Assembly: GCA_963729625.1 (NCBI GenBank)
Contig: CAVSOU010000010.1
Location: forward strand, 928,001-992,000
DNA length: 64,000 nucleotides
Direction of reading: 5' to 3'
Origin: an uncultured bacterium
Lineage (GTDB): Bacteria > Chloroflexota > UBA5177 > JANWHV01
The notes under the pieces were generated by a model. That model was not told the DNA's origin, ran no database searches, and was given only the letters and a program-made list of their open reading frames with translations. Of this stretch, positions 6,045 through 55,860 are shown piece after piece (the stretch's first letter is position 1; the number at the start of each line of letters is the position of its first letter). The position numbers and the translations under genes were made by a program.

Positions 6045-6518
6045 GGCTCTTGTACCTCGCTTCTCGGGGGAGCGAGCTCCCATGTTGATGGGTACCGTCT
6101 CGCTCCTGCTTCATGTTCATTTGTGCTGGGTCCCGCAAGCTCACCCATCCCCGATCGCGGCAGGGCATAGCCGCTGCTGGGCCTGCGGCGACGTGCTCAC
6201 CTCTGGCGCGAGAGTGCCCGCCGATCGGTCGTCCGGGTGCCGGTGACGATCACCGCCGCTGTTTGATCCAAGGCTGGCTGCAGTTTCCTCCCTCCGACGC
6301 TCACAGACACCAGGCCTGTCGCCGCAGTCTGCGCTGTCGCCTGCCAGCGAGGTCCTGTCCGCCTACCTGCCGCACTGCTGGTATGTTGTTCTCAACACTG
6401 CACGATCCGGTCGGCCGGCACCAGGCAACTCGCCACAGGAACTCACGTATCGACCCACATGTACGCTGGTGCGACTGCCGGCCGGCCGCCCTCGTCGGGT
6501 CATGGGAGTGAGGCAGAC

Positions 6519-9448
6519 GTGGACCAAGCGCCCTCCTTCGGCACGCTGCTCAAACGCCATCGTGCGAGGGCCGGCCTGACCCAAGAGGCGCTGGCCGAGC
6601 AGGCGGGCATGAGCGTGCGGGGCATCAGTGACCTGGAGCGCGGGATCAATCGTGCGCCGCGAGCGGTGACGCTCGGGCTGCTGGCCAAAGCCCTCCGCCT
6701 GACAGAGACGGATCGTGCGCAACTGGAGGCGGCAGCCGACGTAGCCGGGAGCGTGGCGGCGGCGCTCACCGACGGCGAGCAGCCTGGCATCGCCAGCCGG
6801 CCGCCCCTGGTGGGGCGACGGCGTGAGCTGGCGCTGCTGGAGAAGCACCTGGCCGGGGAAGGGCCGTCAGTGCTGCTGTATGCGGGTGAACCCGGCATCG
6901 GCAAGTCGCGCCTGCTGCAGCACGCCGCGCAGCAGGCCCCGGCGGCAGGCTGGCGGGTGCTGGAGGGCGGCTGCCAGCGACAGGGCGGTCAGGCGCCCTA
7001 TGCCCCGCTGCTCGAGGCGCTGGAGCAGCACCTGCGGAGCCGGTCGCCGGTCCAGCTGCGCGCGGACCTGCAGGGCTGTGCCTGGCTGGTCCGCCTGCTG
7101 CCGGAGCTGGCAGAGGGGCCGATCGAGCCGCTGCCGCGCTGGGTTGTCACGCCTGAGCAGGAGCGCCGGCTGCTGTTTCGGGCGGTGGCCAGGCTGCTGG
7201 CCAACGTGGCGGGGCCGGCAGGGACCGTGTTGGTGCTGGACGACTTGCAGTGGGCGGCTGCCGACGCGCTGGAGCTGCTGGTGACGCTGGTGCGCGCCGC
7301 CGGCAGGCCACTGCGCGTAATCGGCGCCTACCGGACCACGGAGATGACACCGGACCAGCCCCTCGCGGTTACCTGTGCCGAGCTGGCCGAGGCCCAACTG
7401 GCGACCCTGCAGACGCTCGGGCCGCTGGCCGAGCATGAGGCGGAAGATTCTGGTTGCCTCGCTGCTCGGTGGCCGGGAGGGGATGGCGCCGGCAGCGGCG
7501 GCACAGGTCGTGCGGCGGGTGGGTGGCGTGCCCTTCTTCCTGGTGAGCTACGCCCGGAGCCTGGAGGGCGAGGGCGGTGCGGAGCGCGGCCCCGGCGGGG
7601 CTGCCGTGGGACCTGCGGCAGAGCCTGCGGCGACGGATGCGGGCGCTGTCGGAGGCGGGGCAGGCGCTGCTGGCCGCGGCGGCGGTGGCGGGGCGGGTGA
7701 CGCCGCGCGCGCTGTTGCTGGCGGTGCTGGGCCGGCCGGAGTCAGAGGTGATCGAGGCCCTGGAGGAGGCCTGCCGGGCCGGGTTGCTGGAGGAAGTAGG
7801 CGATGACGGCTACGGGTTCGTGCACGACGTGATTCGGGAGGTGGCGGAGAGCGACCTGGGGCAGGCGCGGCGGCGGCTCCTTCATCGGCAGGCGGCCGAA
7901 GCGCTCGAGGGGTTTCCGGGTGGAGCGCCCGCTGAGCTGCTGGCCTACCACTACGGGCGCAGCGACGTGCCGGACCGAGCCCTGCCGTACCTGGAGCAGG
8001 CCGGTGACGCAGCGCGGGACCAGGCGGCCCATGATGCCGCGGAAGGATACTACCGGGAGGCGATCACCCGCCTGGACGGGCTGGGCCGCCTGGTCGAGGC
8101 GGCGCGGATTCGGGAGAAGCTGGGCGCCGTCCTGTACACCAGGGCTCACTTTACGCGGGCGCTGGAGGTGCTGGAGCAAGCGGCGACGGCGCTGCGCCTG
8201 GCCGGGGACGTGGAAGGCCTGGGCCGCGTGGTGGCACGCATAGGGCGCGTGCACGATCGCCAGGGAACGCTGGAGAAGGGGATCGAGCGCCTCCTACCAC
8301 AGATGGAGACGCTCGTTACGGTTGGGCCGTCCACCAGTCTGGCGGCGCTCTACCGTGCTCTGGCCGGTCTCTACATAGGTCAGGGGCAGTTTCGCGCGGG
8401 ACTGGCGGCAGCCACGCGAGCGGCGGAAGTCGCTCGCCTGGTCGGTGATCACGGGCTGCTCGTCCGGGCGGGGTGGACGCGCGGTGTGGTGCTGCTCTAT
8501 ATGGGGCGTGTCGAGGAGGCCCTGGCGGTATTCCAGGAGGCCAGTGTGCTGGCCGAGGCGGAGGGCAATCTCGAAGTCGTATGCGGTGTGGCAGCGAATC
8601 TGGCATGGCTGGCCGAGGAACGGGGCGAGCTAGAACGGGCCAGGCAGCATGCGACCAGGGCACGCGCGCTCGGTGAACGGCTCGGCGATCCTGTCCTTAT
8701 GCAGAGGGGCCTGATCAGGCTTACGGGCCAAGCCTTCTTCAGCGGTGCGTGGGGCGAGGCACACGCGTACATCGACCGTCTCCAGGAACTGCCCGACCGG
8801 TCGCCCGTGGAGGATGCCGCGGCGGCGCTCGAACCCGGCCGCCTGCTGCTGGCCGAAGGGGAATGGGAGCAGGCGGCCCGCTATCTGGAGCAGTGCAGTG
8901 CCATCGCGCGGCAGGCGAGCTATCTCCTCTTGCAACGGGTCGCGCAGAGTTTCCTGGCCGAGCTGGACCTGATGGAGAGGCGACCCGCGTCGGCACTTGC
9001 GCGCCTGCTGCCGTTGCTGGACCGCGACGGCATGGAGGAGTGGATTGTGACCATCCACGTGCTGCCGGTCCTGGCCTGGGCCTACCTGGAGCTGGGCGAG
9101 ACCGAGCAGGCCGCGCGCACGATCGAGGACGCGCTGCGGCGGCAGCGGGCAGGGCAGTGCCGGCGCGCGCTGGTGGACACGCTGCGAGTGCAGGCGCTGG
9201 TTTCCCTGCGGCAGGGCACGATGCAGACTGCGGCGGACGCGCTGGAGGAAGGGCTGAGCCTGGCCCAAGCCATGCCGTATCCCTACGGCGAGGGGCGGCT
9301 GCTGGAGGTGTGCGGACGGCTGCACCTGGAGCGCGGCGAGATCACGGCTGCACGAGAACGTCTGGAGGCGGCGCTGGCCATCTTCGAACGCCTGGGTGCG
9401 CGAAAGGACCGCGAGCGGACAGAGCAGTTCATAGCTGCACTCGGCTGA
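6519..9448 (+). CDS. XRE-HTH + AAA/STAND-like ATPase + TPR transcriptional regulator (two +1 frameshifts, near 7445 and 7582)
   Basis: FGTLLKRHRARAGLTQEALAEQAGMSVRGISDLERG HTH; Walker A GEPGIGKS; Walker B LVLDDLQWA; GGVPFFL; FVHDVIRE; TPR-like tail, spread over three frames. Confidence 0.85.
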
Positions 9449-11050: not shown

Positions 11051-11683
11051 TTACGCCGCCAGCACCTCGCTCACCATGCGCACGGCGCTCGAGGCATCGG
11101 TGGCGTATCCGTCCGCGCCAATCTCGTGCGCGTAGGCACTGGTGATCGGCGCTCCGCCCACGATAATGCGCGCCTTGTCTCGTAGCCCTGCCGCCTTGAT
11201 CGCCTCGATGATCACCTTCATGTTTGTCATTGTTGTCGTCAGAAGCGCGGACATCGCTACGACATTGGCACCCTCACGGATAGCCTCGACGAACTTCTCA
11301 GCCGGGACGTCTACGCCCAGGTCCATGATCTCGTAGCCCGAGCCTTCCAGCATCATCGCCACAAGGTTCTTCCCGATGTCGTGCAGGTCACCCTTCACGG
11401 TGCCAATCGCCACTTTGCCGCTCGAGGCGACACCCTGGCTCACCAGCTGAGGCTTGAGCACCGCGAGGGCCGAGCTCATTGCTCGCGCCGCCACCAGCAT
11501 TTCAGGCACGAATACTTCGCCCTCTTCGTACAGCTGGCCTACCTGCTTCATAGCCGCGATAAGCCCTTCTTGAAGCAGCGTGCCCGCCGGTATGCCCTCG
11601 GCCAAACCTTGCGTGACTCTTGCCACCGCAACCTTTGCCTGGCCCTCTGCCACGGCCTCGCGAAGCTCGTCTACCAGTGCCAT
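11051..11683 (-). CDS. Corrinoid (cobalamin-binding) protein, MtaC/MtbC-like
   Basis: Cap domain (VFVPEMLVAARAM) plus GDLHDIGKNLV (DxHxxG), SALLTTT, IVGGAP. Confidence 0.95.
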   Translation of the reverse strand: MALVDELREAVAEGQAKVAVARVTQGLAEGIPAGTLLQEGLIAAMKQVGQLYEEGEVFVPEMLVAARAMSSALAVLKPQLVSQGVASSGKVAIGTVKGDLHDIGKNLVAMMLEGSGYEIMDLGVDVPAEKFVEAIREGANVVAMSALLTTTMTNMKVIIEAIKAAGLRDKARIIVGGAPITSAYAHEIGADGYATDASSAVRMVSEVLAA

Positions 11684-11728
11684 AGAAGCCTTCCTCCCGT
11701 TTTGTTGTGTCTCTTCACGCCCAAACCA

Positions 11729-13001
11729 TCATAGTGGATTGCTGCGATACTCGTTGACCGCCTCGTAGAGGGCCAGCAGATTCTCGATGGGAATGCCGGC
11801 CTGAACATTATGGATCGTGGTGAAAACGAATCCGCCGCCGGCGCCGAAGACCTTCAGCCGATCCTTCACCATCTCTCGCACCTCCGCCGGCGAGCCGAAT
11901 GGAAGCACCCTCTGGGTGTCGATGCCGCCGCCCCAAAAGGTGATGCGCTCCCCATACTTGGCCTTCAGCGCGACCGGATCCATGTCGGCCGCGGAAGTCT
12001 GCACGGGATTCAGGCAGTCGAATCCGGCATCCACGATATCATCGAGCAGGCGCCAGATTCGATCCGCACGAATGGATAAAGCACTTCCATTGCGTATGGG
12101 AGTGAATCCACTCGTTCACCTTGACATGAAACGGCTTGAACAGGCTGCGGTAGGCCTTTGGCGAGATGAAGGGGCTGTTCTGCGCGCCAAAGTCTGTGCC
12201 GGTCACGAACGCACCGACCACCCGGTCACCAACAACTTGATGAATCTTCTCCAGGTTTCGCAGTCCGATGTCGCACTGCCGCTCGAAAACCTCGTACACG
12301 TAGTCTCGGCGCAAGCTCGTGCTCACGTACCACTCGTCGACGGCCCGGATGCCCTTTGGGTGCTTCAGGTTCATGCCCGGCACCAGGGCAATGTCGCCGA
12401 AAGCCGTACCCCCGAAGTTGGCTAGAATCGCCTTCCCGGTGGGCCACAGGCGATCGACTTCCTGCTTGAGATAGGCCAGGTCGGCATCGCTGATTGGCGC
12501 GAACTCCTCGAGGTTGTCCTCGACGTTCAGCCGGTCGTCGTCGATAGGGTCCTGCCTGGTTATCGCGTCGAAGTAGAAGCCGCCCCTGGGCATGCGGGCG
12601 CACGCCGCGACCGACATATCACCGGCGGGATAGGCCAGAATATCACCATTTGGCTCCGGAACTGTGTTGAACCCCTCGGGAACCAGCACCGGAGTGCCAC
12701 CGAATGTCGTCCAGGGCTTCCAACCTTCATTGCGAAAGCCAAGCATCGTCCCCGGCATCCCCAGCCCCACGATGTCGACGCCAAGCACGTCCATCAGGTC
12801 CGGAGCGATCTCGCCGAGCAGCTGGAACGGCTCGACTACCTTCACGGGCGTGCCAGGAGGATCCAGGTGCAGCGCCTGCCGCAGCCTGTACACCGAGTCT
12901 ACATGCATTCCTGTCACCGGGCTGCCGCCAAGATCGAGCGGCACCTTGTCTGGCTCCTGGTGCTGCACGGCACACTCGACACGAGCACGAGACGTCAACA
13001 T
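11729..13001 (-). CDS. UroD/MtaA-family (methyltransferase-like) protein 1, with +1 frameshift near 12058
   Basis: SRARVECAVQHQEPDKVPLDLGG, GTDFGAQ, FIHSCGS|IWRLLDDIVDAGFDCLNPVQ, TFWGGGIDTQ, IHNVQ; removing one A joins ORFs 12039-13115 and 11729-12034. Confidence 0.88.
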
Positions 13002-13197
13002 CGTTCGGTCCTCCTTCGGCCCGCTGAAGTCAGCCGACCCTCTCAATATCTCTCCGGCGGCATGGATAGCACAAGTCCAACCATCACCGCGAGAGCGCAG
13101 TTGAACATCCGGCACTCGCAGTCCAACACAACCTCGTTACGCAGCGTCGCAGCACAAGCAAAAGTGATCTGATCACCGGAAGATATGAGCCATGGTG

Positions 13198-13226
13198 AGC
13201 ATAGGCTAGAGCTTGCACGCTGTCAA
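13198..13226 (-). promoter_or_regulatory. Sigma70-type promoter of the UroD-corrinoid operon
   Basis: TTGACA-N17-TATGCT on the minus strand. Confidence 0.75.
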
Positions 13227-13257
13227 GAGCCAGAACGACCCATGGAGTGTGGATGTA

Positions 13258-13286
13258 TTGACAGCGCGCCGATCCTGCACTATGCT
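13258..13286 (+). promoter_or_regulatory. Sigma70-type promoter of the FadR-ABC-dehydratase operon
   Basis: TTGACA-N17-TATGCT. Confidence 0.75.
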
Positions 13287-13359
13287 CACACTGGCCTGAA
13301 ACAGTTGATGATCAGATCTCCTTAACAGTCATCTGATCACCGGTGTCCATCGCCAATAC

Positions 13360-14283
13360 TTGGACTGCATGGCGGTCGAGTTCACCTTCCATTACGGGGA
13401 ACGGTGCCCAAAGGTGCAGAAGCAAGCGCAACGGCGACAAGTCTATTCGGCAGTGATGGACCAGATCCGCGATGATATCGCCGTGGGACGGCTGCAGGCC
13501 GGCGATCGGCTGGAAACTGTCAGCAACTTGGCCAAGCGCCTGGGCGTCGGCCAGTCATCGGTGCGTGAGGCTGTCCGTGTCCTCAGCTACATGGGCTTGC
13601 TGCGCGTAAAGCATGGCGGTGGCATCTTCGTCACCGAGCGCCTTAGCAGTGGCGGCACGCCCGATCCTATCGATTCGATGGCTGATGTCGAGCGCATCTC
13701 ATTGTGGCACCTGATGGAGCTGCGCTTGGTCGTCGAGCCGGCTGCCGCGAGGTGGGCCGCGGAGCGCGCGACGGCTGCTGAACGCGCGGAGATCGTGCGC
13801 CGGTGCGCGGAAGTGCAGGACGAACTGCGCCGCAATATTGAGTTCCTTGAGAACAGCGAGTTCCAGGAAGACGACGTGGAGTTCCACCTGGCTATCGTGC
13901 GCGCCGCCCACAATCCCCTCCTGCTCGATACTCTTGAGCGCGTACACGCTCAGCTTCGGGTTGGACGCTACATCACGTCGCATGTACCCCAGCTGGTGGA
14001 CAGCGCCCTGCGATTCCACCCGCAGATCGCGCAGGCCATACTTGCACACGATGCGAGCCGGGCCGAGACTTACGCTCGTTCGCATGTTGAAGATGTCGTG
14101 TGGTGGCTGGAACAGCATGCGGCCGACCGCCTCGCCCTGGGCGACGAAGGGCGCGCAGGGCCTGCACTTGAGATCCCCGCCATAGTGACCGGAGAGCCGG
14201 CGAACGCGCCTGGATCCGGCGCACTATTGTCGGGTCGTGCTAGGTACGCGAGGAGCGACGCGTCGCCGGGAGGTCTAGCTTGA
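13360..14283 (+). CDS. FadR/GntR family transcriptional regulator
   Basis: wHTH LAKRLGVGQSSVREAVRVL; FCD domain ELRLVVEPAAARWAA, DVEFHLAIVRAAHN; true start may be 13369 or 13414. Confidence 0.92.
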   Translation: MDCMAVEFTFHYGERCPKVQKQAQRRQVYSAVMDQIRDDIAVGRLQAGDRLETVSNLAKRLGVGQSSVREAVRVLSYMGLLRVKHGGGIFVTERLSSGGTPDPIDSMADVERISLWHLMELRLVVEPAAARWAAERATAAERAEIVRRCAEVQDELRRNIEFLENSEFQEDDVEFHLAIVRAAHNPLLLDTLERVHAQLRVGRYITSHVPQLVDSALRFHPQIAQAILAHDASRAETYARSHVEDVVWWLEQHAADRLALGDEGRAGPALEIPAIVTGEPANAPGSGALLSGRARYARSDASPGGLA

Positions 14284-15845
14284 CTTCGGCTGCCAGCGCG
14301 GCTCCGCCCTTGGGTCGCACGCTTTTGCGCGCAAATGCCGTCACCAAAATCTATCCGGGCGTGCTCGCGCTGGATCAAGTCAGCCTGGACGTCTGTGCCG
14401 GCGAAGTACATGCCATAGTGGGGGAGAATGGCGCGGGCAAGACCACCTTGATGGCCATTCTGGCGGGCACTCAGCTTCCCGATGGTGGTCAGCTGTACAT
14501 GGACGGTACCCTCGTGCAGATCCCCGACAGGAAGACAGCAGAGCACCTTGGCATCAGCATCGTGTTCCAGGAGCTCAGTCTCGTCTCGAACCTGTCGGTT
14601 GCCGACAACGTGTTCGCTGCTCGCCAGCCCGTGGGCCTCCTCAACCTGGTGCGCCAACGCGAGCTGTACGCTCGCACCCAGGCGGTGCTGGACCGGTTCA
14701 ATCTCGGTCTCAACGCTCGCACGTTGGTGGGAATGCTGCCCACGGCCAGCCGCCAGGTGGTAGAAATCGCCAAGGCGCTGTCGCTTGACGCGCGAGTGCT
14801 CATCCTCGATGAGCCCACCTCGTCGCTAAACCAGCACGAAGCGCAGCGGCTTTTCGCGGTGATTCGCCGGCTGCGTGATGAAGGTATGGGCATTTTCTAC
14901 ATCTCACACCACCTTGACGAAGTGTTCGCTATTGCCGATCGCATCTCGGTCCTCCGCGACGGCAAGCATGTCGGCACGCGAGTAACGGCGGAGACGAACG
15001 AAGCGGAAATCGTGCGGCTCATGGTTGGCCGCGAGGTACAAACTCTCTATGGTCGAGCAGAAGCACTCGACCGCGGTACCGCTTCTCCCGCGCCGTTGCT
15101 CTCCGCGCACGCCCTCCGTTTTGGCGCGATGCTCAGGGACGTGTCTTTGAGCATCAGCCCAGGCGAGATAGTCGGCGTGGCCGGACTCGTGGGAGCCGGT
15201 AGGACGGAGCTTGGCCGTGCGCTCTTCGGGCTGCTGCCGCTGGAAGGAGGCAGCATGACGATCGACGGTAAGTCGGTCGAATTGCGATCGCCTGCCGATG
15301 CCATCCGGCACGGTCTCGCCTACATCCCGCAAGAGCGCAAAGAAGAAGGACTGTTCCTGATCATGCATCTGGCCGACAACATCGCGGCGCCAAACCTGCG
15401 ATCGCTCAGCCGGTACGGCATGATGCAGGCGGACGCCGTGCGCCGCCTGGCGGCCGAGTATACGAAGACGCTGAACATTCGCACGCCAAGTCTTTTCTCC
15501 AGAGTGAGCAACCTCAGTGGCGGGAACCAGCAGAAGGCGCTGGTCTCCATGTGGCTCGCACAGAAGCCGCGGTTGCTGATCGTGGACGAGCCCACCCGAG
15601 GTATCGACATTGGAGCGAAGGCAGAGATTCACCGACTTCTGCGGGAACTCGCCAGGGAAGGCATGGCAATCCTGATGATCTCCTCTGAGCTTCCGGAGAT
15701 TCTGTCACTCAGCCACCGGATCTTGGTCATGGCAAAGGGCCGTATCACGGGTCATTTCACAAGCGAAGAAGCGCAAGAGGAGTCGATCATGGCGTGCGCC
15801 TCGGGCCTTGCTTTGCATCTGCCGGCACAGCCGGACTCACTGTAA
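14280..15845 (+). CDS. Sugar ABC transporter ATP-binding protein (RbsA/MglA type)
   Basis: GENGAGKTT, LILDEPT, LSGGNQQK, DEPTRGIDIGAK; two ABC domains. Confidence 0.95.
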   Translation: MTSAASAAPPLGRTLLRANAVTKIYPGVLALDQVSLDVCAGEVHAIVGENGAGKTTLMAILAGTQLPDGGQLYMDGTLVQIPDRKTAEHLGISIVFQELSLVSNLSVADNVFAARQPVGLLNLVRQRELYARTQAVLDRFNLGLNARTLVGMLPTASRQVVEIAKALSLDARVLILDEPTSSLNQHEAQRLFAVIRRLRDEGMGIFYISHHLDEVFAIADRISVLRDGKHVGTRVTAETNEAEIVRLMVGREVQTLYGRAEALDRGTASPAPLLSAHALRFGAMLRDVSLSISPGEIVGVAGLVGAGRTELGRALFGLLPLEGGSMTIDGKSVELRSPADAIRHGLAYIPQERKEEGLFLIMHLADNIAAPNLRSLSRYGMMQADAVRRLAAEYTKTLNIRTPSLFSRVSNLSGGNQQKALVSMWLAQKPRLLIVDEPTRGIDIGAKAEIHRLLRELAREGMAILMISSELPEILSLSHRILVMAKGRITGHFTSEEAQEESIMACASGLALHLPAQPDSL

Positions 15846-15859
15846 AGGAGCATCGCGTC

Positions 15860-16942
15860 ATGATCAAGGAACCGCCTGTCGAGGCCGAACTGGCGGGCCA
15901 GGGCGCCGAAAGCGTGCCCGTAGCCGCGCTCAACCCAGTGATGCGCGCGCTTGGGGTCGTCGGGCAGGTCCGTGAGCTTGCATTGGTCATCATGTTGGTG
16001 CTCGGCAGCCTCATCGTCAACATCTACCTCCCGGGCTTCCTTGGCTGGACGAATTTCAAGGTCATACTCCTCGGCATGAGCTTCGATGCCGTGGTGGCCG
16101 TGGGCATGACTATTCTCCTCGTAAGCGGCGGATTCGATCTCTCGGTCGGGGCCACCATGGCTCTGGGCGGGAGCGTCACGGGCCTGGCGATTGGTAACGG
16201 CACGCCAATCGTGCTTGCCATGGCCGAAGGGCTTCTGGTGGGTGGGATCGTCGGACTCGCAAACGGCCTGATCATCGCCCGGCTGGGTGTCAACCCGCTG
16301 ATCACGACGCTGGGCACGATGAGCATCGTGAACGGCGCGGTCCTGCTGATCACGGCGGAGCAGGGCGTGAGCAACCTGCCCGACTCGTTCACCGGCCCGG
16401 TTGGCCAGGACACGCCGCTCGGCATCCAGGTGCCGATCCTGGTCATGGCGGTGTTCGTCGTCGTCGGCGATATCTTGCTGCGGCGATCGCGGTTCTTGCG
16501 CCAGAACTACTACATCGGCGCCAACATCAAGTCCGCCCGGCTCTCCGGCATCACGGTCACGCGCATCCAGATTTTCAACTACACGCTCATGGGCGTGCTG
16601 TCCGCCGTGGCAGGCATACTCACCGCCGCGCGCCAGTCCGGCATCTCGACCAGTACCGGTGGTCCGGACGCTCTCCAGGTCATCGCAGCGTGCGTGATCG
16701 GTGGCGCCAGCCTGAGCGGCGGTGAAGGCACGATACTGGGAGCATTTCTCGGACTCTTCCTTCTCAACGCAATCCTCAACGTTATCTCCGGCGCCGGCAT
16801 CAATCCTGACTGGGGTCCGGTCATCACGGGCGCGGTGCTCGTGATCGCCGTGTCGCTGGACCAGCTTGGTCGGGTGATTCGCCTGCAAGGCGGCTGGCGA
16901 AGCGCCACGCGCTACTTGCTGCGCATGGCACGGCGCGGCTAG
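15860..16942 (+). CDS. Sugar ABC transporter permease (RbsC type)
   Basis: GGFDLSVG, IGANIKSARLSGI, VIAACVIGGASLSGGEG. Confidence 0.95.
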   Translation: MIKEPPVEAELAGQGAESVPVAALNPVMRALGVVGQVRELALVIMLVLGSLIVNIYLPGFLGWTNFKVILLGMSFDAVVAVGMTILLVSGGFDLSVGATMALGGSVTGLAIGNGTPIVLAMAEGLLVGGIVGLANGLIIARLGVNPLITTLGTMSIVNGAVLLITAEQGVSNLPDSFTGPVGQDTPLGIQVPILVMAVFVVVGDILLRRSRFLRQNYYIGANIKSARLSGITVTRIQIFNYTLMGVLSAVAGILTAARQSGISTSTGGPDALQVIAACVIGGASLSGGEGTILGAFLGLFLLNAILNVISGAGINPDWGPVITGAVLVIAVSLDQLGRVIRLQGGWRSATRYLLRMARRG

Positions 16943-17089
16943 GCGCGGCACGAGGAGGAGAGGAGGACGAGAGTAGATCGATTCGCAGGTCGGGGCAATA
17001 CTGGTGGTCTCATTTGGGCAGCAGGTACATGGCTCTAGTCCGCATGCCACACTGATCGTGGTCCATGCGCAAGCAGAAAAGGACATACC

Positions 17090-18139
17090 GTGAACGATTT
17101 TGAGGATCAGTTGCCCGAGGCAGCACACGATTTTAGTCGCCGCGATATTCTTACAGCCGGCCTCGGCCTCGGAGCCGCGGCAGGCATTGCAACCCTGTTT
17201 CCCGGCTTCGCCGGCGTCGCCTCGGCAGCATCGCGAGCACAGGTGCCCGTGAGCGCTCAGGTGTACGTCGAAGTATCCGCACTGTCATCGCTTTCGTATT
17301 TCATCGACCATCGCCTTGGCATGACGTTAATTGGGAAAGATCTGGGCGTCAAGACGCAGTATGTGGGACCGTCGAACCTGGATCTCACGGCCATGTTGAA
17401 TATCATCGACCAGAAGATTGCTCAGAAAGTGTCCGGCATGCTGGTCGTCGGTTTTGATCCAATCCTCAAGAGTGGCATCGACAAAGCGATCGCGGCCGGC
17501 ATCCCGGTCGTCACGCTCGACGCCGATGTGCCCACGAGCAACCGGCAAGTATTCCTGGGCACGGGCAATGTCAATGTCGGCATCCTGGGCGGCAACCTTA
17601 TGGCGACCGCTATCGGCAAGAAGGGCAAAGTCGCCATTATCAGCAGGATCGGCCAGAGCAATCTTGACGAGCGCGTGCAGGGGTATAAGACTGCCCTCGC
17701 GGCCTATCCCGGTATTACGGTCGTTCAAGTCGCCAACGACGACAGCGACTCGACAAAGGCAGCGTCCGTCGTAGGCTCTATCCTGCGCACGCACTCCGAT
17801 CTTGCCGGCGTAGCCTGCGTTGAAGCGGCTGGCGGCGTGGGATCGGCTACCGCGGTGAAGGAAGCAGGGAAAGTCGGTAAGGTCCAGATCATCTCCATGG
17901 ATCGGGACGATCAGACCCTCAACTTCATTGAGCAGGGTGTGATCCTCGCATCCACTGCCCAAAAGACGGCTCTCATGAGCTACCTGGGTACACTGATGCT
18001 CTACTATTATGTCAACCATCCGGTGCCGATCGTCGCAGACAACATTGCCGCCGCCGTGACGCCGCTCCCGGCGACCGTAGACACAGGTGCGCTGGTCATC
18101 AACAAGGCAAACGCTCACTTCTTCTTCCACAAGAAATAG
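17090..18139 (+). CDS. Sugar ABC transporter substrate-binding protein with Tat signal
   Basis: SRRDIL twin-arginine motif; AGIPVVTLDAD, NLDERVQGY: RbsB-like fold. Confidence 0.92.
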   Translation: MNDFEDQLPEAAHDFSRRDILTAGLGLGAAAGIATLFPGFAGVASAASRAQVPVSAQVYVEVSALSSLSYFIDHRLGMTLIGKDLGVKTQYVGPSNLDLTAMLNIIDQKIAQKVSGMLVVGFDPILKSGIDKAIAAGIPVVTLDADVPTSNRQVFLGTGNVNVGILGGNLMATAIGKKGKVAIISRIGQSNLDERVQGYKTALAAYPGITVVQVANDDSDSTKAASVVGSILRTHSDLAGVACVEAAGGVGSATAVKEAGKVGKVQIISMDRDDQTLNFIEQGVILASTAQKTALMSYLGTLMLYYYVNHPVPIVADNIAAAVTPLPATVDTGALVINKANAHFFFHKK

Positions 18140-18212
18140 AGCAGTACCGGGCATCCGCCGCACGCGACTCGGGGCGGTCGCGTGCGGCGGCACCTGCCAG
18201 AGGAATCCCAGC

Positions 18213-19376
18213 ATGAAGATCACCTCCGTCAACACGGTCGTCGTCAACGCAAAGATGCGTAACTGGATCTTCGTCAAGGTCGCTACGGATGAGGGGCTGA
18301 TCGGTTGGGGTGAAGCCAGCCTCGAGTGGAAGACTCGAGCAGTGAGCGGTGCGGTTGCCGACCTTGCGCCGCTGATCGTTGGCCAGGATCCGACACGGAT
18401 CGAACACCTGTTTCAGATCATGTACCGCCATCCCTTCTTTCGCGCCGGCGTCGAAGGAATGAGCGCGATCTCCGGCATAGAACAGGCCTGCTGGGACATA
18501 GCCGGGAAAGCTGCCGGCAAGCCTGTGTATCAGTTGCTTGGTGGCGCCGTGCGCGATCGCGTCCGCATGTACGACCATCTTGGCGGCGGCGAGATGACGG
18601 CGCTCTATCTCCGCGATACCGCGGAAAGCATGGCAGAACGCGCCCGCGAGAGCGTTGCTTCGGGATACACGGCGATCAAGGTGCTCGTGGTGCCAAGAAC
18701 CCTACCGCTGGAAGGTAACGCACCAGTGCGGCATGCCGAGACCCTGATGCGGGCCATTCGCGAAGCCGTGGGCCCGGATATTGACATCATGGTCGATCTG
18801 CACGCGCGTACCACCCCTGCCATGGCTATCCAGTATGGCGAGGTGCTGCGCCCGTTCAAGCCGTTCTTCCTCGAAGAGCCCTGCCCTCCCGAAAACGTCG
18901 CAGGCATGGCGGAGATAGCGCGCGCGCTGCCGGGCATAGCCATTGCCACCGGCGAACGCTTGATCACTCGATGGGGCTTCCGCGAGGTGCTGGAGCGGAG
19001 CGCATGCGCGGTCATACAACCGGATCTCTGTCACTGCGGCGGCTTGTGGGAAGCTCGCAAGATCGCGGCGATGGCGGAGACCTACTACGTGAGCGTGGCG
19101 CCACACAACCCGTTGGGCCCGGTTGCCACCGCGGCCGCGATCCACTTTGCGCTGGCCACGCCGAATTGGCTGATTCAGGAGGCAATTCGTTCCGACGTAC
19201 CGTGGCGGGACGCGATAGTCGGCGAAGCCCTGCCGGTCGCGGATGGCTACATTCTTCCGCCAACGGCGCCGGGTTTGGGAGTCGACGTGGACGAGACCGA
19301 GGCCGCGAAGCATCCGTTTGAGCAGGAAGTGCTGATGCAGTGGTGGCACTCCGATGGCGCGGTGGCCGACTGGTAG
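18213..19376 (+). CDS. dgoD: Galactonate dehydratase-like enzyme (mandelate racemase/enolase superfamily)
   Basis: WIFVKVATDEGLIGWGE, MVDLHAR, FLEEP, ATGERL, QPDLCHCGG, APHNPLGP, C-terminal DGAVADW; exact substrate not certain. Confidence 0.8.
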   Translation: MKITSVNTVVVNAKMRNWIFVKVATDEGLIGWGEASLEWKTRAVSGAVADLAPLIVGQDPTRIEHLFQIMYRHPFFRAGVEGMSAISGIEQACWDIAGKAAGKPVYQLLGGAVRDRVRMYDHLGGGEMTALYLRDTAESMAERARESVASGYTAIKVLVVPRTLPLEGNAPVRHAETLMRAIREAVGPDIDIMVDLHARTTPAMAIQYGEVLRPFKPFFLEEPCPPENVAGMAEIARALPGIAIATGERLITRWGFREVLERSACAVIQPDLCHCGGLWEARKIAAMAETYYVSVAPHNPLGPVATAAAIHFALATPNWLIQEAIRSDVPWRDAIVGEALPVADGYILPPTAPGLGVDVDETEAAKHPFEQEVLMQWWHSDGAVADW

Positions 19377-19586
19377 CCGTCGCCGGCGGCTTCGCGGCGC
19401 TTTGGCGTCCTTCATGAGGCCGGAGAAAGAGCTGTGCCTGCGGCGCGCCAAACTTCTGAGCCGAGTGCTTCCAGGGTGTCATCGCTCAGTTCTGGGCGCC
19501 CGCGGGAATTCTCGCACAGGCCTTGACCCCGTGGCGCCCGGCTCGCTAGGATTGGCTATGGCAATAGGCAACCAGGGGAGGGGCGC

Positions 19587-20387
19587 GTGATGAGTCAGGG
19601 ACGAGTCGCAGGGAAGGGTGCCATCGTCACCGGGGGTGCATCCGGAATCGGATTGGCCACTGCTCGGCTGCTGGCGCATGAGGGGGCCGAGGTCATGATC
19701 GCCGACGTGAATGCCGCGGCCGGTGAGCTCGCGGTCGCGGAGATCGCGAAGTCTGGAGCACATGTTCTCTTTCAGGCTGCCGACGTGTCCGAGCCTGCAG
19801 CCGTTCAGGCACTGATCTCCCGCGCAGTGCGTGAGTTTGGACGCCTGGACATTGTCTTCAACAACGCCGCGATCATGCCATTGGGGTCCGTGCTGACGAC
19901 AACGCCGGCGGTGTGGGATCGCGTGATGGCAGTCAACCTTCGTAGCGTCTTCCTGGTTTCCCAGGCCGCGGCGCGCGCTATGCTCGACGGAGCGCTTCCA
20001 TTGGGCAACGTCGGCAGCATCGTCAACGCGGCGTCGCCGACGGGGTTGCTTGGGTATCCCAACCAGTTGGCGTATTGCGCCTCCAAGGGAGCGATCTCAG
20101 CCATGACCCGCACCATGGCCGTCGAGTTGGCGCCACGGATCCGCGTGAATAGCGTCGTGCCCGGCACCACCGACAGTGGTCTCTTGCATGCCTATATGGA
20201 GACAGTCGAAGACAAGGATCGCGTGTTGAGCGCGTTTGCATCGCAACACCTGCCGGGCCGCATTGGCAAACCCGAGGATGTCGCGTTCGCCGTACTGTAC
20301 CTCGCATCCGACGAGGCAGACTTTGTCACTGGATCGGCGCTCATGGTGGACGGTGGCGCCACCATCATGAAGGGCAATCCTCAATGA
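19587..20387 (+). CDS. Short-chain dehydrogenase/reductase
   Basis: TGGASGIG, NNAA, YCASK, VNSVVPG, VTGSALMVDGG. Confidence 0.95.
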   Translation: MMSQGRVAGKGAIVTGGASGIGLATARLLAHEGAEVMIADVNAAAGELAVAEIAKSGAHVLFQAADVSEPAAVQALISRAVREFGRLDIVFNNAAIMPLGSVLTTTPAVWDRVMAVNLRSVFLVSQAAARAMLDGALPLGNVGSIVNAASPTGLLGYPNQLAYCASKGAISAMTRTMAVELAPRIRVNSVVPGTTDSGLLHAYMETVEDKDRVLSAFASQHLPGRIGKPEDVAFAVLYLASDEADFVTGSALMVDGGATIMKGNPQ

Positions 20388-20421
20388 CGTCAGAAAGCCC
20401 GACGGGAGATTGGGTGCGCTG

Positions 20422-21618
20422 CTACGATGTGCCTGCCAGTCGCCCACGCAAGCACTCGAATACGGCTCGGCGTCCGGTCTGGTAGTCGCGACGCACCGAT
20501 TCGTACTTGCCGCCCTCCAGCAGGGCCACAACCGGTGAGTACTGCGAATTAATCACAAGCCCGGTGAAATCAAGACCGTCCAGCAGATCGCTGAAGTATT
20601 GCTCGTACTGCAAGGGAGTGAAATCGCAGACAAACAGCGCGACCTTCCTCCCCAGCTTCTCCCGCAAGCGGCGGAAGCCGTCGAGGTCGTAGAGCGTGTA
20701 GTTGTTGATCGCGCGAAGACCATCGATCGCCAGGAAGTTCTCCGCCTGGTGCGTAGCGTTGCCGCAGTAGTGCAGGCATCCTCCGTCGAAGGCGCGCAAG
20801 AGCCGTGAGTTGTAGGGCACGACGAACTCGCGGTAGTACTTCGGGGACATGATGACCGCGTCATCGTCGGAGAACCAGACGCCGGCGTGTCTGCCCGTAT
20901 ACACCTGCTGGTCCGCGATACATTCTGTCAGCGGCTCGCCAATCACCTCTTTCTGCACCTTGACCCACCGGATGAGGGCCTCGGTGACCTTCTCCATCAG
21001 CTCGTGAGCCGCCGTTGGGTAGTCTGCCATCAAGTAGATGAGCTTGTCGTAGCCCATCAGCTGGTTGGCCGTGGTGAGCGGTCCCTGCAGATCGGTGATT
21101 CCGACCGGCAGGAAGCTGTTCGACTTCATATAGCGGAGATAGTCGAGCACGCGAGGCATAAGGCCATCCCGGTGCGGATCTGGGATCTCCAGCTTCCGGA
21201 CGTCCTCCGGGGTCGTGACGGGATAGAAACGCGGATTGGCGGCGGGATCCTGCTTCGGAAAGAACTCGATCTGGCAGCCGAAAGCGGACGCGGTGACGAC
21301 TGTGCCAAGCCACGGCATCAAATAGGGAACGAAATCGTCGTCGATCTGCCGAACCTGGTCGTAGTACGTGCGCTCCTGGAAGGCCGTCATGACGGCGGCA
21401 TCCTCGCAGTACTCGGCCGGCAACACGTCCGTGTCCAGTCCGAAGATCCAGTAGAGCGAACCGTTCACACTGAACGGCGGTTCCTTGACCGGTCGAAACG
21501 CGAACACGTCGTCGGTCTTGGCCTTGACCTTTGCGAGCCGGCGCTCGAACAGGCGTTGAAAATCCTCTCGCTCAGCTGCTGAGAGCGGTTTGACCTGCGT
21601 TGCCGTTTCCATGTTCAC
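20422..21618 (-). CDS. UroD/MtaA-family protein 2
   Basis: TDLQGPLTTA, FSDDDAVIMSPKYYREFVVPY, LHYCGN; GTG start overlaps the upstream stop (GTGA). Confidence 0.82.
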   Translation of the reverse strand: MNMETATQVKPLSAAEREDFQRLFERRLAKVKAKTDDVFAFRPVKEPPFSVNGSLYWIFGLDTDVLPAEYCEDAAVMTAFQERTYYDQVRQIDDDFVPYLMPWLGTVVTASAFGCQIEFFPKQDPAANPRFYPVTTPEDVRKLEIPDPHRDGLMPRVLDYLRYMKSNSFLPVGITDLQGPLTTANQLMGYDKLIYLMADYPTAAHELMEKVTEALIRWVKVQKEVIGEPLTECIADQQVYTGRHAGVWFSDDDAVIMSPKYYREFVVPYNSRLLRAFDGGCLHYCGNATHQAENFLAIDGLRAINNYTLYDLDGFRRLREKLGRKVALFVCDFTPLQYEQYFSDLLDGLDFTGLVINSQYSPVVALLEGGKYESVRRDYQTGRRAVFECLRGRLAGTS

Positions 21619-22652
21619 TGCCTCCGATACGAGCCGTATTTCTTGGCTGACTCTACCAGCGCGTGGATGTTGTCGGCCGGCGTGTTGGGCGGCAATGCGC
21701 AACCTGGTCCGAGAATGAAGCCGCTGCCGGGTTGGCACACCGCGATCAGTTCGCGACACGCATCTTCTACCTCGCCTGGCTTTCCAAGCGCGAGCAGGTT
21801 GGTGTCGATGTTGCCGAGCAGCGTCGTCCTGCCGCGCGCTGCGTCCTTGAGCCGCCTCGCGTCGGTCTTGTGGTCAATTTCGAGCACCTGTGCGCCGGTG
21901 GCGATGTAGTCCTCGGTGATCTTCGCGGTGTCGCCGCAGATGTGCAGGTGCAGAATGATGCCGTGTTGCTTCAGCTCTTCGACCATGCGCTGCTCGTGGA
22001 TCCACGGGTATCGCCGGTAGTGCCGGGGCGAGAGCATCGCAGGTCCACCTACCGGCTCGCCAATCGACGTCGAATGGCCGCCGCACTCAATCAAGGCGAA
22101 TGCATAGCGAGTTGCCACGCGACGAGCATAGTCAAGCAGCGCATGGATCAGGTCCTCGCGTTCGCCTGTCGCTATGTCCATCATGAACTCACTCATCCCG
22201 CGCAGCTCAGCCGCCAGGTCCATCGGTCCCTGGTCTGCCCGCGCGCAGATCCACGCCTGGTCTCCGACCTCGCGCGCGAGGATGCGGGTCGCCTTAAGGA
22301 TTTCGCACATCGGGAACGCAGTATAGGGATCGGGCACCTCGAGCTCGGTCACGTCTTCGAGGGACTTCAGAAGGGGCTCACCGACGACCGGCGCTGTGTC
22401 GTCGCGGTAATACACGTGCATGCCGCATGCCTGCGCGTTGCAGGCCGTGCCGTTTTCCAGCAGGATCATGTCGTGATGAAACTCGCGCCACGCCTGCAGC
22501 ATTGACTCGGCCAAAAGCTCTCCGTCGCGGAACACTTGCGACATGGGTAGCCCCGAGGCATATGCTGCCGGCTGGAAGTTGTGCAGGTCGACCGGGACGC
22601 GGTCTGGCTCGCGCAGCTCGATAGCGGCACGAACGCGCTCAACGGAATCCAA
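21615..22652 (-). CDS. UroD/MtaA-CmuA-family methyltransferase-like protein 3
   Basis: ERVRAAIELREPDRVPV, QGPMDLA, LHICGD, LLGNID, FILGPGCALP: complete H-x-C...C zinc motif. Confidence 0.88.
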   Translation of the reverse strand: MDSVERVRAAIELREPDRVPVDLHNFQPAAYASGLPMSQVFRDGELLAESMLQAWREFHHDMILLENGTACNAQACGMHVYYRDDTAPVVGEPLLKSLEDVTELEVPDPYTAFPMCEILKATRILAREVGDQAWICARADQGPMDLAAELRGMSEFMMDIATGEREDLIHALLDYARRVATRYAFALIECGGHSTSIGEPVGGPAMLSPRHYRRYPWIHEQRMVEELKQHGIILHLHICGDTAKITEDYIATGAQVLEIDHKTDARRLKDAARGRTTLLGNIDTNLLALGKPGEVEDACRELIAVCQPGSGFILGPGCALPPNTPADNIHALVESAKKYGSYRRQ

Positions 22653-54684: not shown

Positions 54685-55698
54685 CTATCGCTGCAGCTGG
54701 GCGCTGGCGAGAAGATCTCGGTACATCTGCTGCGTCTGCACATCTGGGGCGATGTTGAGTTCTCGCCGAAGAACGTCTGCAAGCTTCCGGTACGTACGGA
54801 CCGCCTCGCCAGTGCGGCCGTCCGCGACCTGGAGTCGCATGAGGCCGCGCGTCGCGGGCTCGTGGTACGGATCCTGGTCGAGAACGGCATGCAGGCAGCG
54901 GGCGGCGGCGCTGAAGGCGCCATCATGCTCGCAGAGGGCGGCCGTGTGTAGCAAAATGGCAAGATAGCGCTGGCGCAACTCTTCCCTGCGGGTGACGGCC
55001 CATTCGTCGTACAGGTCTTCCGAGAGGTAGTCGCCCTTGTAAAGCGCCAGAGCAGCACGGCAGAGCGCGATGCTCTTGTGGGCAAGCGCGTTTGTCACTG
55101 CGCGATCGAAGACGGCGGCATCCAGCCAGTCCTGCGGCGCCGGCACGTCCGGTACGGCAGTCAGGACCAACATGTCTCCCTCCGCATGGATATAGCGGAC
55201 GCCTCCCGGGGTCTCGCCGAGAATCCGGCGAAGGCGGTGCACCGTGATGCGAAGGTTGTTCGCGCCGAGTTGAGGATCTGCATTTGGCCAGAGCATCTCC
55301 ATTGCATGTTCGCGGTGTACGCGCTGGCCCGGCGCACTGATGAGACATTTGAGGAGCCCGAAAACCTTGCGCTGTCTCAGGCTCTTCGCAGGCACCCGTA
55401 TATCGCCGCGCCATATTTCGAATGAGCCGAGGGTACGCACCCGGATGCAGGGGTTCGTCGGATCCGGCGACCGTGGCGTGACCGTCGGCAATGATAGGCC
55501 GGGCCCCGCGACAGCTGGCGGCAATTGCTTGCCCAGGTAGTGAGATCGCAGACGCCGGCCTTCGCGCCAATAGGCATACCAGTAGGGCCCATGGCCGGGT
55601 GCGCCGAGGCTGCAGCAGGAGCAGTCGGACTTATTGCAGCGCCGAAACTGCCGGCTGTACGTGACATGTGCCTGGGACTGAAGGTCACCGAACACCAT
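54685..55698 (-). CDS. DUF6788-like Cys/His domain fused to SARP-type wHTH and BTAD activator domain
   Basis: RRCNKSDCSCC..GHGPYWYAYWREG..RSHYLGK; VRTLGSFEI, MLWP..NNLRITVHRLRR; WLDAAVF, ALALYKGDYL, DPYHE. Confidence 0.88.
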   Translation of the reverse strand: MVFGDLQSQAHVTYSRQFRRCNKSDCSCCSLGAPGHGPYWYAYWREGRRLRSHYLGKQLPPAVAGPGLSLPTVTPRSPDPTNPCIRVRTLGSFEIWRGDIRVPAKSLRQRKVFGLLKCLISAPGQRVHREHAMEMLWPNADPQLGANNLRITVHRLRRILGETPGGVRYIHAEGDMLVLTAVPDVPAPQDWLDAAVFDRAVTNALAHKSIALCRAALALYKGDYLSEDLYDEWAVTRREELRQRYLAILLHTAALCEHDGAFSAAARCLHAVLDQDPYHEPATRGLMRLQVADGRTGEAVRTYRKLADVLRRELNIAPDVQTQQMYRDLLASAQLQR

Positions 55699-55860
55699 CC
55701 GCCAACCTCGAAGCAGCTCGCCCGTTCTTGGCAACAGCTTAAGAACAATTATGGACTCTCGCATGAGGTTGCACAAGGGGCCTCCAGATGTACACAAGGG
55801 CCACCTGAGAAACTGTGCAGCTCCGCTGAAACGAAGATGTTACGTCGAGGCGCTAGGCTC

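Follow-up and report, generated by a model that had tools for sequence, protein, structure and literature searches.

Corrinoid-dependent methyl transfer has been described as a scheme composed of a first methyltransferase (MT I), a corrinoid protein (CP) and a second methyltransferase (MT II), in which the CP and MT II can be common to several MT I enzymes (PMC13391211). Within the UroD superfamily, OdmB and VdmB are reported to be phenolic O-demethylases, and the mlp clusters of MtaA-like genes found in anaerobes are read by Kountz and Balskus as systems of methyl-sulfur or methyl-selenide metabolism (PMC10418091). B12-dependent demethylation of glycine betaine by MtgBCD is reported for aerobic marine bacteria (PMC12478193), and marine bacteria are also reported to O-demethylate sugars by means of cytochrome P450 (PMC6292453); the only sugar demethylases that we found in print are of this latter, O2-requiring type. 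A corrinoid-dependent sugar or cyclitol demethylase is not described in the full-text literature that we searched, outside of which most subscription journals lie. Abundant methylated sugars and cyclitols include the 4-O-methyl-glucuronate of xylan, the methyl-fucose and methyl-xylose of pectin, the methyl-galactose of red algae and pinitol. Here, we analyze a 64,000-nucleotide stretch of DNA (the window; contig CAVSOU010000010.1, positions 928,001 to 992,000) from an uncultured member of the Chloroflexota (GCA_963729625.1), in which genes for a CP and three UroD-superfamily proteins, referred to as UroD1, UroD2 and UroD3, flank a set of genes for the import and oxidation of a sugar.

Pfam and NCBIfam profile scans of the open reading frames (ORFs) place ten genes in the block spanning positions 11051-22652 (Table 1), and every gene that the original prediction had listed from the letters alone was found where it had been placed. 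We consider the odds to be evenly balanced that this block constitutes a three-component cobalamin-dependent methyl-transfer system that is coupled physically, and probably transcriptionally, to a sugar-type import and oxidation module; all of its chemical steps are ones that we infer. That the UroD1, UroD2 and UroD3 families depend on a corrinoid is very probable, and their gene contexts are best read as pointing to a sugar-like methyl donor, a reading towards which we lean slightly. More tentatively, and with somewhat more doubt than belief, we propose that UroD1 and UroD2 each typify a widespread family of enzymes that use cobalamin to demethylate the methyl ethers of sugars or cyclitols (that is, aliphatic ethers). 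The two families occur in at least 10 phyla including oxidase-bearing bacteria, and would work with shared CPs, a RACo-type activase and an MtaA-like or homocysteine-type MT II such that methyl groups of plant, algal and microbial glycans enter one-carbon and methionine metabolism without O2.

The CP of the block comprises a B12-binding Rossmann domain and an N-terminal helical cap, both of which were matched, and the D99, H101 and G104 residues of its DxHxxG motif (the base-off/His-on motif) are invariant in a 15-sequence alignment. It scored under the cut-off of every named equivalog, including its best NCBIfam match, MtgC_2 (224.9 vs 370), as well as TIGR02370 (185.8 vs 215.3) and MtbC (184 vs 350). 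UroD3, which possesses the zinc-type motif H237-x-C239...C318, likewise fell under the cut-offs of the MtaA/CmuA models (TIGR01463, 131.7 vs 235.4; PRK06252, 134.9 vs 244), and the start codon of UroD2, an ATG, lies 2 nt past the UroD3 stop codon. UroD2 scored 39.7 against the MtaA/CmuA models, below cut-off, and its H275, C277 and C323 residues, candidate zinc ligands, are invariant in 10 sequences. A predicted model of UroD2 (pLDDT 81.2, pTM 0.85) matched uroporphyrinogen decarboxylases and the MtaA of Methanosarcina mazei (4ay7, 4ay8) with TM scores of 0.57-0.69 at 13-18% identity, the top matches being true uroporphyrinogen decarboxylases; the model thus confirms a UroD/MtaA-type fold, and the fold does not discriminate function. 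By sequence, neither UroD1 nor UroD2 matched a solved structure at E <= 0.01, and when PF01208 clusters were left out of an ESM Atlas search, B12-binding domains were found in the nearest named clusters, at scores of at most 0.87, which is a lead only. Across the UroD1 family, H310 and H397 are found in 81 of 81 sequences and C312 in 80 of 81, alongside many conserved Trp, Asp, Asn, Gln and Arg residues, such that the third metal-site position is a histidine (H397) where the MtaA/CmuA pattern of His-x-Cys...Cys has a cysteine. We take the conserved His-x-Cys to be a metal site of the MtaA/MetE type, which true UroD lacks.

The host genome (21 contigs, 5.4 Mb, 87% complete, 5% contamination) contains 44 URO-D-family matches by profile search but only two small corrinoid proteins, in addition to MetH. 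Because neither MttB nor MtaB was matched in this 87%-complete genome, the 44 URO-D proteins are the only candidate CP partners of a known type. The lack of a RamA-type reactivase had been entered as a caveat, and while this holds within the window, the genome-wide look for RamA and MetH that had been suggested located both: a single RACo/RamA-type activase gene with Fer2, linker, middle and ASKHA domains resides at C11:591320 beside the second CP, and MetH is encoded at C7:402297. This second corrinoid locus (C11:584000-603999) encodes, on one strand, a BtuFCD-like transporter, the CP, a RuBisCO-like protein, a PfkB kinase, an AAA_33 protein, a DUF2090 protein, a 410-aa cupin-like protein, RACo and a DUF1638 protein, and again joins B12 methyl-transfer machinery to catabolic genes of a sugar-phosphate- or inositol-like kind. 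The 410-aa protein, which lies between RACo and DUF2090, was also considered as a UroD or MtaB candidate and set aside, no local profile having matched it; its motifs resemble those of a cupin-type sugar isomerase, a label with no family search behind it. The IleRS gene of the host groups it with uncultured Chloroflexota. The genome encodes haem-copper oxidase subunit I (COX1), which sets the host apart from the strict anaerobes among classical methylotrophs, so the analogy to methylotrophic anaerobes from which the original prediction had argued does not apply directly.

The remaining URO-D paralogues of the host are also found among sugar genes. A component of an ATP-binding cassette (ABC) transporter lies within 6 kb of 20 of the 44 matches, whereas 1000 random draws gave 8.0 on average and never more than 18. 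One operon reads DeoR-ABC-SBP (substrate-binding protein)-UroD-FGGY kinase-TIM barrel, one cluster holds five UroD genes together with a GH29 fucosidase and two ABC systems, and further UroD genes are grouped with an MR_MLE dehydratase, an SDR and a GntR regulator. At four of the ten enolase-superfamily sites in the genome the dehydratase adjoins a URO-D paralogue (including C10:718192-720530, C10:1107253-1110033 and C10:1184307-1191113), and this pairing is seen at further sites in a sister genome of the same genus, G001 (including C10:425407-428277). Most host paralogues keep His-x-Cys and some have His-x-Asp, with either His or Cys at the third position. As a separate observation, neither the host nor the 95%-complete G001 contains a URO-D match of HemE strength (best, 222 and 217 bits, vs approximately 395-440 in most relatives); haem may be synthesized by another route, or one URO-D paralogue may be HemE.

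Within the block itself, the parts of a CUT2 (ribose-type) importer are complete, namely a double ATPase, a BPD_transp_2 permease and a Peripla_BP_4 SBP, and the export of the SBP via the twin-arginine translocation (Tat) pathway that had been proposed agrees with a Tat-like signal, SRRDIL, at its N-terminus. No substrate-specific NCBIfam equivalog was reached for the ABC system: the ATPase came closest to the xylose, arabinose and ribose ATPase models without reaching any of their cut-offs, and the best model for the SBP was a rhizopine SBP (91 bits vs a cut-off of 420). The best match of the SBP among 40 relatives is 37% identical, and a search of 400 additional genomes from the phylum gave no orthologue at E <= 1e-70. 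The DgoD-like dehydratase passes the galactonate-dehydratase equivalog (NF010624, 370.6 bits vs 311) and among solved structures it is closest to 3rcy and 3rr1, both of which are structural-genomics entries; for none of the SBP, the dehydratase and the SDR did a structural or family match name a substrate.

The two arms of the block diverge from an intergenic region in which a promoter scan returned two sites, as compared to a shuffle mean of 0.6. Downstream of each of these divergent promoter-like sites lies one of two operator-like repeats of 20 nt, which are identical at 18 of 20 positions and whose exact 13-mer core is confined to these two places in the 5.4-Mb genome. The operator motif that had been noticed on both arms is thereby upheld, and comparison of the arms confirmed it, at the level of sequence, as part of a duplicated promoter-operator cassette. 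The FadR-type protein is probably a repressor that acts on the duplicated operator. The region upstream of UroD1 in G001 has a homologous promoter and a related palindrome, though the closest protein to the regulator in G001 is only 32% identical and not an orthologue.

Table 1. Genes of the block and elements of its divergent regulatory region, in window coordinates
Feature	Position	Strand	Evidence
CP, corrinoid (B12) methyl-carrier protein, 210 aa	11051-11683	-	PF02310 95.9 bits, PF02607 68 bits
UroD1, ~423-aa UroD-superfamily protein, HSCG...IHN metal motif	11729-13001	-	two frames, split near 12058
Operator copy 1 (UroD1-CP arm)	13160-13179	-	20-nt direct repeat
Promoter-like site TTGACA-17-TATGCT (UroD1-CP arm)	13226..13198	-	promoter scan
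Promoter-like site TTGACA-17-TATGCT (FadR-ABC arm)	13258..13286	+	promoter scan
Partial inverted operator copy (FadR-ABC arm)	13309-13323	+	repeat comparison
Operator copy 2 (FadR-ABC arm)	13324-13343	+	20-nt direct repeat
FadR-subfamily GntR regulator (HTH + FCD), start uncertain 13360-13435	13360-14283	+	PF00392 55 bits, PF07729 78.3 bits
CUT2-type sugar ABC ATPase, two fused cassettes	14280-15845	+	PF00005 in 2 stretches
ABC permease (BPD_transp_2), start uncertain	15794-16942	+	PF02653 117.8 bits
Tat-signal SBP (Peripla_BP_4)	17090-18139	+	PF13407 159.7 bits
DgoD-like enolase-superfamily acid-sugar dehydratase, ORF open from 18087	~18213-19376	+	PF13378, PF02746, NF010624
SDR oxidoreductase, glucose 1-dehydrogenase subfamily	19587-20387	+	NF005559 245.1 bits vs cut-off 215
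UroD2, 396-aa divergent UroD-superfamily protein, candidate MT I	20422-21612	-	PF01208 73.4 bits, partial match
UroD3, 345-aa MtaA-like UroD-superfamily protein, candidate MT II	21615-22652	-	PF01208 197.9 bits, full length

A search of the species-genome collection gave at least 605 relatives for the UroD1 family; the best 80 of these were kept, giving 79 loci that we examined up to 10 kb on each side. These best 80 relatives are 52-69% identical and derive from Acidobacteriota, Planctomycetota, Hydrogenedentota, Anaerolineae, Actinomycetota, Bacteroidota, KSB1, Bathyarchaeia and others. Some corrinoid machinery lies near UroD1 at 20 of the 79 loci: a CP at 19, RACo at 12, DUF1638 and MtaB at eight each, a homocysteine S-methyltransferase domain at five and a pterin-binding protein at two. 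At 17 of the 79, the CP is part of the same gene string as UroD1 (same strand, gaps <250 bp). Sugar transport or catabolism genes are near UroD1 at 38/79 loci and occur together with corrinoid machinery at 10/79. Of the 59 UroD1 loci without a corrinoid gene of their own, 50 were tested, and RACo is encoded elsewhere in the genome for 49 of these. In a 401-genome sample of the phylum, RACo was detected in 137 genomes and the UroD1 family (E <= 1e-80) in 11, and all 11 UroD1-bearing genomes possess RACo as compared to 126 of the 390 others, a contrast drawn from 8 genera whose kin are not independent.

Outside the Chloroflexota, the genes immediately upstream of UroD1 encode a CUT2 ABC system at six loci and an MFS sugar transporter at four. 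One string reads SBP-ATPase-permease-UroD1-UroD-UroD-CP (L072) and another pterin MT-DUF1638-RACo-LacI-...ABC-UroD1-UroD-CP (L089). The homocysteine S-methyltransferase domains at five UroD1 loci point to methionine as one methyl sink. MtaB is found beside CP and UroD1 in metagenome-assembled genomes of non-methanogens (L044, L045, L055, L057, L062, L080, L112 and L113) that belong to Solirubrobacterales, KSB1, Phycisphaerae, Acidobacteriaceae and Steroidobacteraceae, and at these loci either the carrier is common to methanol and the UroD1 substrate or UroD1 is itself the MT II. Pyrrolysine was entertained for in-frame stops in five UroD1 orthologues of the phylum and rejected, as four of these are natural stops at the alignment end; the sole internal stop, a TAG at residue 171, a conserved acidic position, belongs to an orthologue near a CP and a GH3 glycosidase (L015, G031:C310, 6468-7715) and is probably a point mutation or an error rather than pyrrolysine.

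A similar picture emerges for UroD2, a family of 701 protein clusters at E <= 1e-10 that are 65-73% identical among the matches listed, where the only names are 'uroporphyrinogen decarboxylase' and 'hypothetical'. Its neighborhoods were drawn from 80 metagenome loci, many of them short, in which the most frequent neighbors are further UroD genes, GH3 (11), CP (6), LacI (5), CobW (5), RhaT (4), GH67-N-like (4), GH43 (3) and ROK (3). Among the 37 loci of at least 5 kb, 26 have sugar-related genes and five have a CP. UroD3 orthologues (68-77% identical) lie directly upstream of UroD2 at 14 of the 61 metagenome loci with enough upstream sequence. Of the strings at UroD2 loci, one reads LacI-CP-UroD3-UroD2-CobW (L139; L161 is the same but ends before the CobW position), a second LacI-CP-ABC ATPase-permease-binding-protein-like-UroD-UroD3-UroD2 (L140), and a third places RhaT...UroD-UroD2-CP in order (L151). 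L139, L161, L140 and L151, along with L072 and L089, are the closest counterparts of the window locus. Collectively, the link of these families to sugars is good but circumstantial, resting on neighboring genes for ABC and MFS sugar transporters, for LacI regulators and for glycoside hydrolases. Fusions of UroD and corrinoid domains were absent from 159 loci. Separately, a CobW/COG0523-type metallochaperone gene directly follows UroD2 at four of eight displayed loci (L139, L141, L147 and L157), an adjacency that fits a metal-dependent (Zn) UroD2 in need of a chaperone.

In G001 the order is UroD3 (84% identical), an intact UroD1 (85%) and CP (87%), with no sugar module, and the exact arrangement of the block is therefore not conserved. 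The corrinoid tie and the sugar context that the original prediction gave to the UroD families do stand, and the neighborhood search for corrinoid, UroD and sugar ABC genes that it had called for recovers similar strings across phyla (e.g. L072). Our first reading was that the sugar module is a recent insertion, which is weakened by the conserved UroD3-UroD2 adjacency at 14 of 61 loci; because this pair is old, loss of the segment in G001 is at least as likely as its gain in the host. Across the 41 nearest relatives (a set that includes G018, with one URO-D match and no RACo), RACo is present in 5/5 genomes with at least seven URO-D matches vs 6/36 others, and three genomes of the same genus with two or three URO-D matches have no RACo.

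The UroD gene that had been placed beside the CP does belong to the UroD family, but its reading frame is broken by a +1 frameshift near position 12058 that had gone unnoticed. Translation would start at an ATG at 13001, preceded by a GGAGG Shine-Dalgarno sequence, and the N-terminal part (12039-13001) and C-terminal part (11729-12115) lie in different frames. The C-terminal part matches PF01208 at 26.3 bits (gathering cut-off, 23.9) and scores 20.2 against the MtaA/CmuA models, under their cut-offs (TIGR01463, 235.4; PRK06252, 244), and the N-terminal part alone gave no match. The frame is intact in the G001 orthologue and in a 156-nt contig from a permafrost metagenome, which has one base fewer at 12058 and differs at five other letters. 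The extra base sits in a short A run. None of the sequencing runs searched shared more than 0.14 of the words sampled from the host DNA; because the source DNA was found in none of them, mutation and assembly error are not separable, and we regard the two as equally possible. Further URO-D copies in the host genome also look interrupted (C11:56358/56521, C8:772554-773673 and a 176-aa fragment at C10:1149735). As an observation in its own right, contigs from a wetland metatranscriptome align to window positions 12721-12871 and 12960-13092, which take in the 5' leader of UroD1 and the part of the gene that encodes its N-terminus. The aligned stretches measure 133-151 nt and differ at 2-3 positions, which hints that the UroD1 of a near relative may be transcribed, although the contigs may also stem from DNA carry-over.

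Taken together, the genes of the block suggest how the system might operate. An O-methyl aldose, its aldonate or a methyl-cyclitol would be imported by the Tat-exported SBP and CUT2 ABC system. By analogy to the three-component scheme, UroD2 and UroD1 would be MT I enzymes and the MtaA-like UroD3 an MT II acting on a thiol: the metal site of UroD2 or UroD1 (His-x-Cys plus Cys or His) would polarize the ether oxygen and Co(I) on the CP would take the methyl group, with UroD1 taking part if it is intact. Precedent for attack by Co(I) on an aliphatic C-O bond exists in MtaB, which acts on zinc-activated methanol. UroD3 would then hand the methyl group to a zinc-activated thiol, either homocysteine or another, while the single RACo activase encoded outside of the block would re-reduce Co(II). 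The freed sugar would be oxidized by the SDR and then dehydrated by the DgoD-like enzyme, and one repressor, probably the FadR-type protein, would occupy the duplicated operator of both divergent promoters. As a specific route, the order of demethylation, SDR oxidation and DgoD-type dehydration is doubtful, and we offer it as a possibility that is rather unlikely to hold in every step.

A number of observations weigh against a sugar demethylation system. Positions 13236-21614 of the window (8.4 kb, from the regulator through UroD2) have no counterpart in G001 by blastn, nor does G001 have orthologues of FadR, the DgoD-like dehydratase or the SBP, and the sugar module may thus have come to lie here only recently and by chance. 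The reading frame of UroD1 is broken in the assembly. A CP is missing from the surroundings of 60/79 UroD1 and 74/80 UroD2 loci, and the sugar genes within 10 kb are raw counts without a baseline rate for those genomes. The eight loci where MtaB adjoins UroD1 also fit UroD1 as an MT II for methanol-derived methyl groups, and the high conservation of these proteins (52-73% identity across phyla) fits a common, cofactor-like substrate equally well. The host genome has no stand-alone pterin-type MT II, since the pterin-binding domain PF00809 was found in only MetH and one 345-aa frame at C8:535088. The absence of a kinase and an aldolase from the window, which had been conceded at the outset, is also borne out: Pfam scans of the 11 locus ORFs and of 39 of the 58 further window ORFs of at least 100 aa returned neither a PfkB kinase nor an aldolase that could continue a De Ley-Doudoroff or dgo-type pathway from a 2-keto-3-deoxy-aldonate. 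Lastly, the corrinoid O-demethylases with known substrates of which we are aware act on aryl rather than alkyl methyl ethers.

Several of these points would be accommodated if the CP and the three UroD proteins served a non-sugar methyl donor, such as methanol, lignin methoxy-aromatics or methyl-sulfur compounds, and the FadR-ABC-DgoD-SDR genes were an ordinary aldose or aldonate island lying between them by chance. The module-free locus of G001, the lack of SBP, FadR and DgoD orthologues in relatives and the proximity of MtaB to UroD1 are in keeping with such independence, as is the published reading of mlp clusters as methyl-sulfur or methyl-selenide systems (PMC10418091), yet we judge it unlikely. 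UroD2 stands on the module side of the block and is translationally coupled to UroD3, and the conservation of this pair argues for segment loss in G001; moreover, the same genome-unique promoter-operator cassette is present on both arms, sugar transporters, LacI and glycoside hydrolases recur beside both UroD families in unrelated phyla, and neither MtaB nor MttB was found in the host. It is rather improbable, in our estimation, that the locus is decaying in this strain such that UroD1 is a pseudogene and the CP arm, whatever its earlier role, has ceased to cooperate with the sugar module. The one-base frameshift, the intact frame in both a near-identical environmental contig and G001, and the broken appearance of other URO-D copies are in keeping with decay, but the extra base in a short A run of a 21-contig assembly with 5% contamination could equally be an assembly error, and the CP, UroD2 and UroD3 genes are intact.

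The preferred assignment of UroD1 and UroD2 as corrinoid-dependent MT I enzymes must also be set against the idea that most UroD paralogues, these two included, are metal-dependent sugar or sugar-acid enzymes built on the UroD TIM-barrel fold, such as decarboxylases or hydrolases, and that only a few MtaA-like members such as UroD3 use the CP. This would explain why 44 URO-D matches coexist with two CPs, why most paralogues sit beside dehydratases, dehydrogenases, kinases and transporters with no CP nearby, and why several have H-x-D in place of H-x-C; the top fold matches of the UroD2 model and the lack of sequence matches between UroD1 or UroD2 and solved structures are compatible with it as well. 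We nonetheless hold it to be quite improbable, given that His-x-Cys is a feature of MtaA/MetE-type metal sites rather than of true UroD, that RACo accompanies UroD1 in 49/50 and 11/11 genomes and is present in all five URO-D-expanded genomes, and that a CP belongs to the string of 17/79 UroD1 loci and is present at 6/80 UroD2 loci. The surplus of URO-D proteins over carriers is likewise less telling in light of the report that numerous MT I enzymes can draw on a single CP (PMC13391211).

Elsewhere in the window, an HTH-AAA_16 ORF (6459-7700) and a MalT-like TPR ORF (7577-9448) on the same strand overlap by 124 nt within positions 6459-9448. They may be a single STAND-type regulator split by a frameshift, which would fit indel errors in the assembly. 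Positions 55525-60111 encode a 1528-aa nSTAND1 NTPase with long WD40 arrays, adjoining a BTAD/Trans_reg_C regulator.

If cobalamin-dependent demethylation of sugars or cyclitols by UroD1 and UroD2 is correct, it would account for the utilization of such methylated compounds at low O2 and provide a function for hundreds of genes annotated just as 'uroporphyrinogen decarboxylase'. It would also add a demand for B12 to polysaccharide degradation and widen corrinoid methyl-transfer chemistry from aryl to aliphatic ethers.

Among described systems, the three-component corrinoid O-demethylases of anaerobes (OdmB/VdmB or MtvB as MT I, with CP, MT II and activase) resemble the window locus in that a UroD-superfamily MT I lies beside a small DxHxxG CP, a RACo-type activase is encoded in the genome and several MT I paralogues exist per carrier. 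Their substrates are aryl methyl ethers, whereas the context here is one of sugar import and catabolism, in an oxidase-bearing host that lacks a stand-alone pterin-binding MT II and whose UroD1 and UroD2 have no solved-structure match. The MtaB/MtaC/MtaA system of Methanosarcina shares with the block the MtaA-type HxC...C of UroD3, and the UroD2 model counts MtaA among its closest matches in fold; however, no MtaB was found here, all MtaA/CmuA NCBIfam cut-offs were missed and coenzyme M cannot be assumed to be the acceptor. Type 1 mlp clusters, as Kountz and Balskus present them, also combine several MtaA-like UroD paralogues with a CP in the absence of an H4folate methyltransferase within the cluster, but they include an activase and occur in obligate anaerobes that are mostly Firmicutes (PMC10418091), whereas here RACo is encoded elsewhere, the host is an oxidase-bearing member of the Chloroflexota and the context is sugar-related. 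MtgBCD, according to its report, is likewise a B12-dependent demethylation system of an aerobe that is tied to methionine synthesis (PMC12478193), and its MtgC model is the best NCBIfam match of the window CP, though one that falls short of the cut-off, and its MT I belongs to the MttB superfamily that was not found here. The P450 sugar O-demethylases have the same role as is proposed here, the removal of a methyl ether that blocks sugar catabolism, but fulfil it by O2-dependent, oxidative chemistry on an unrelated fold (PMC6292453).

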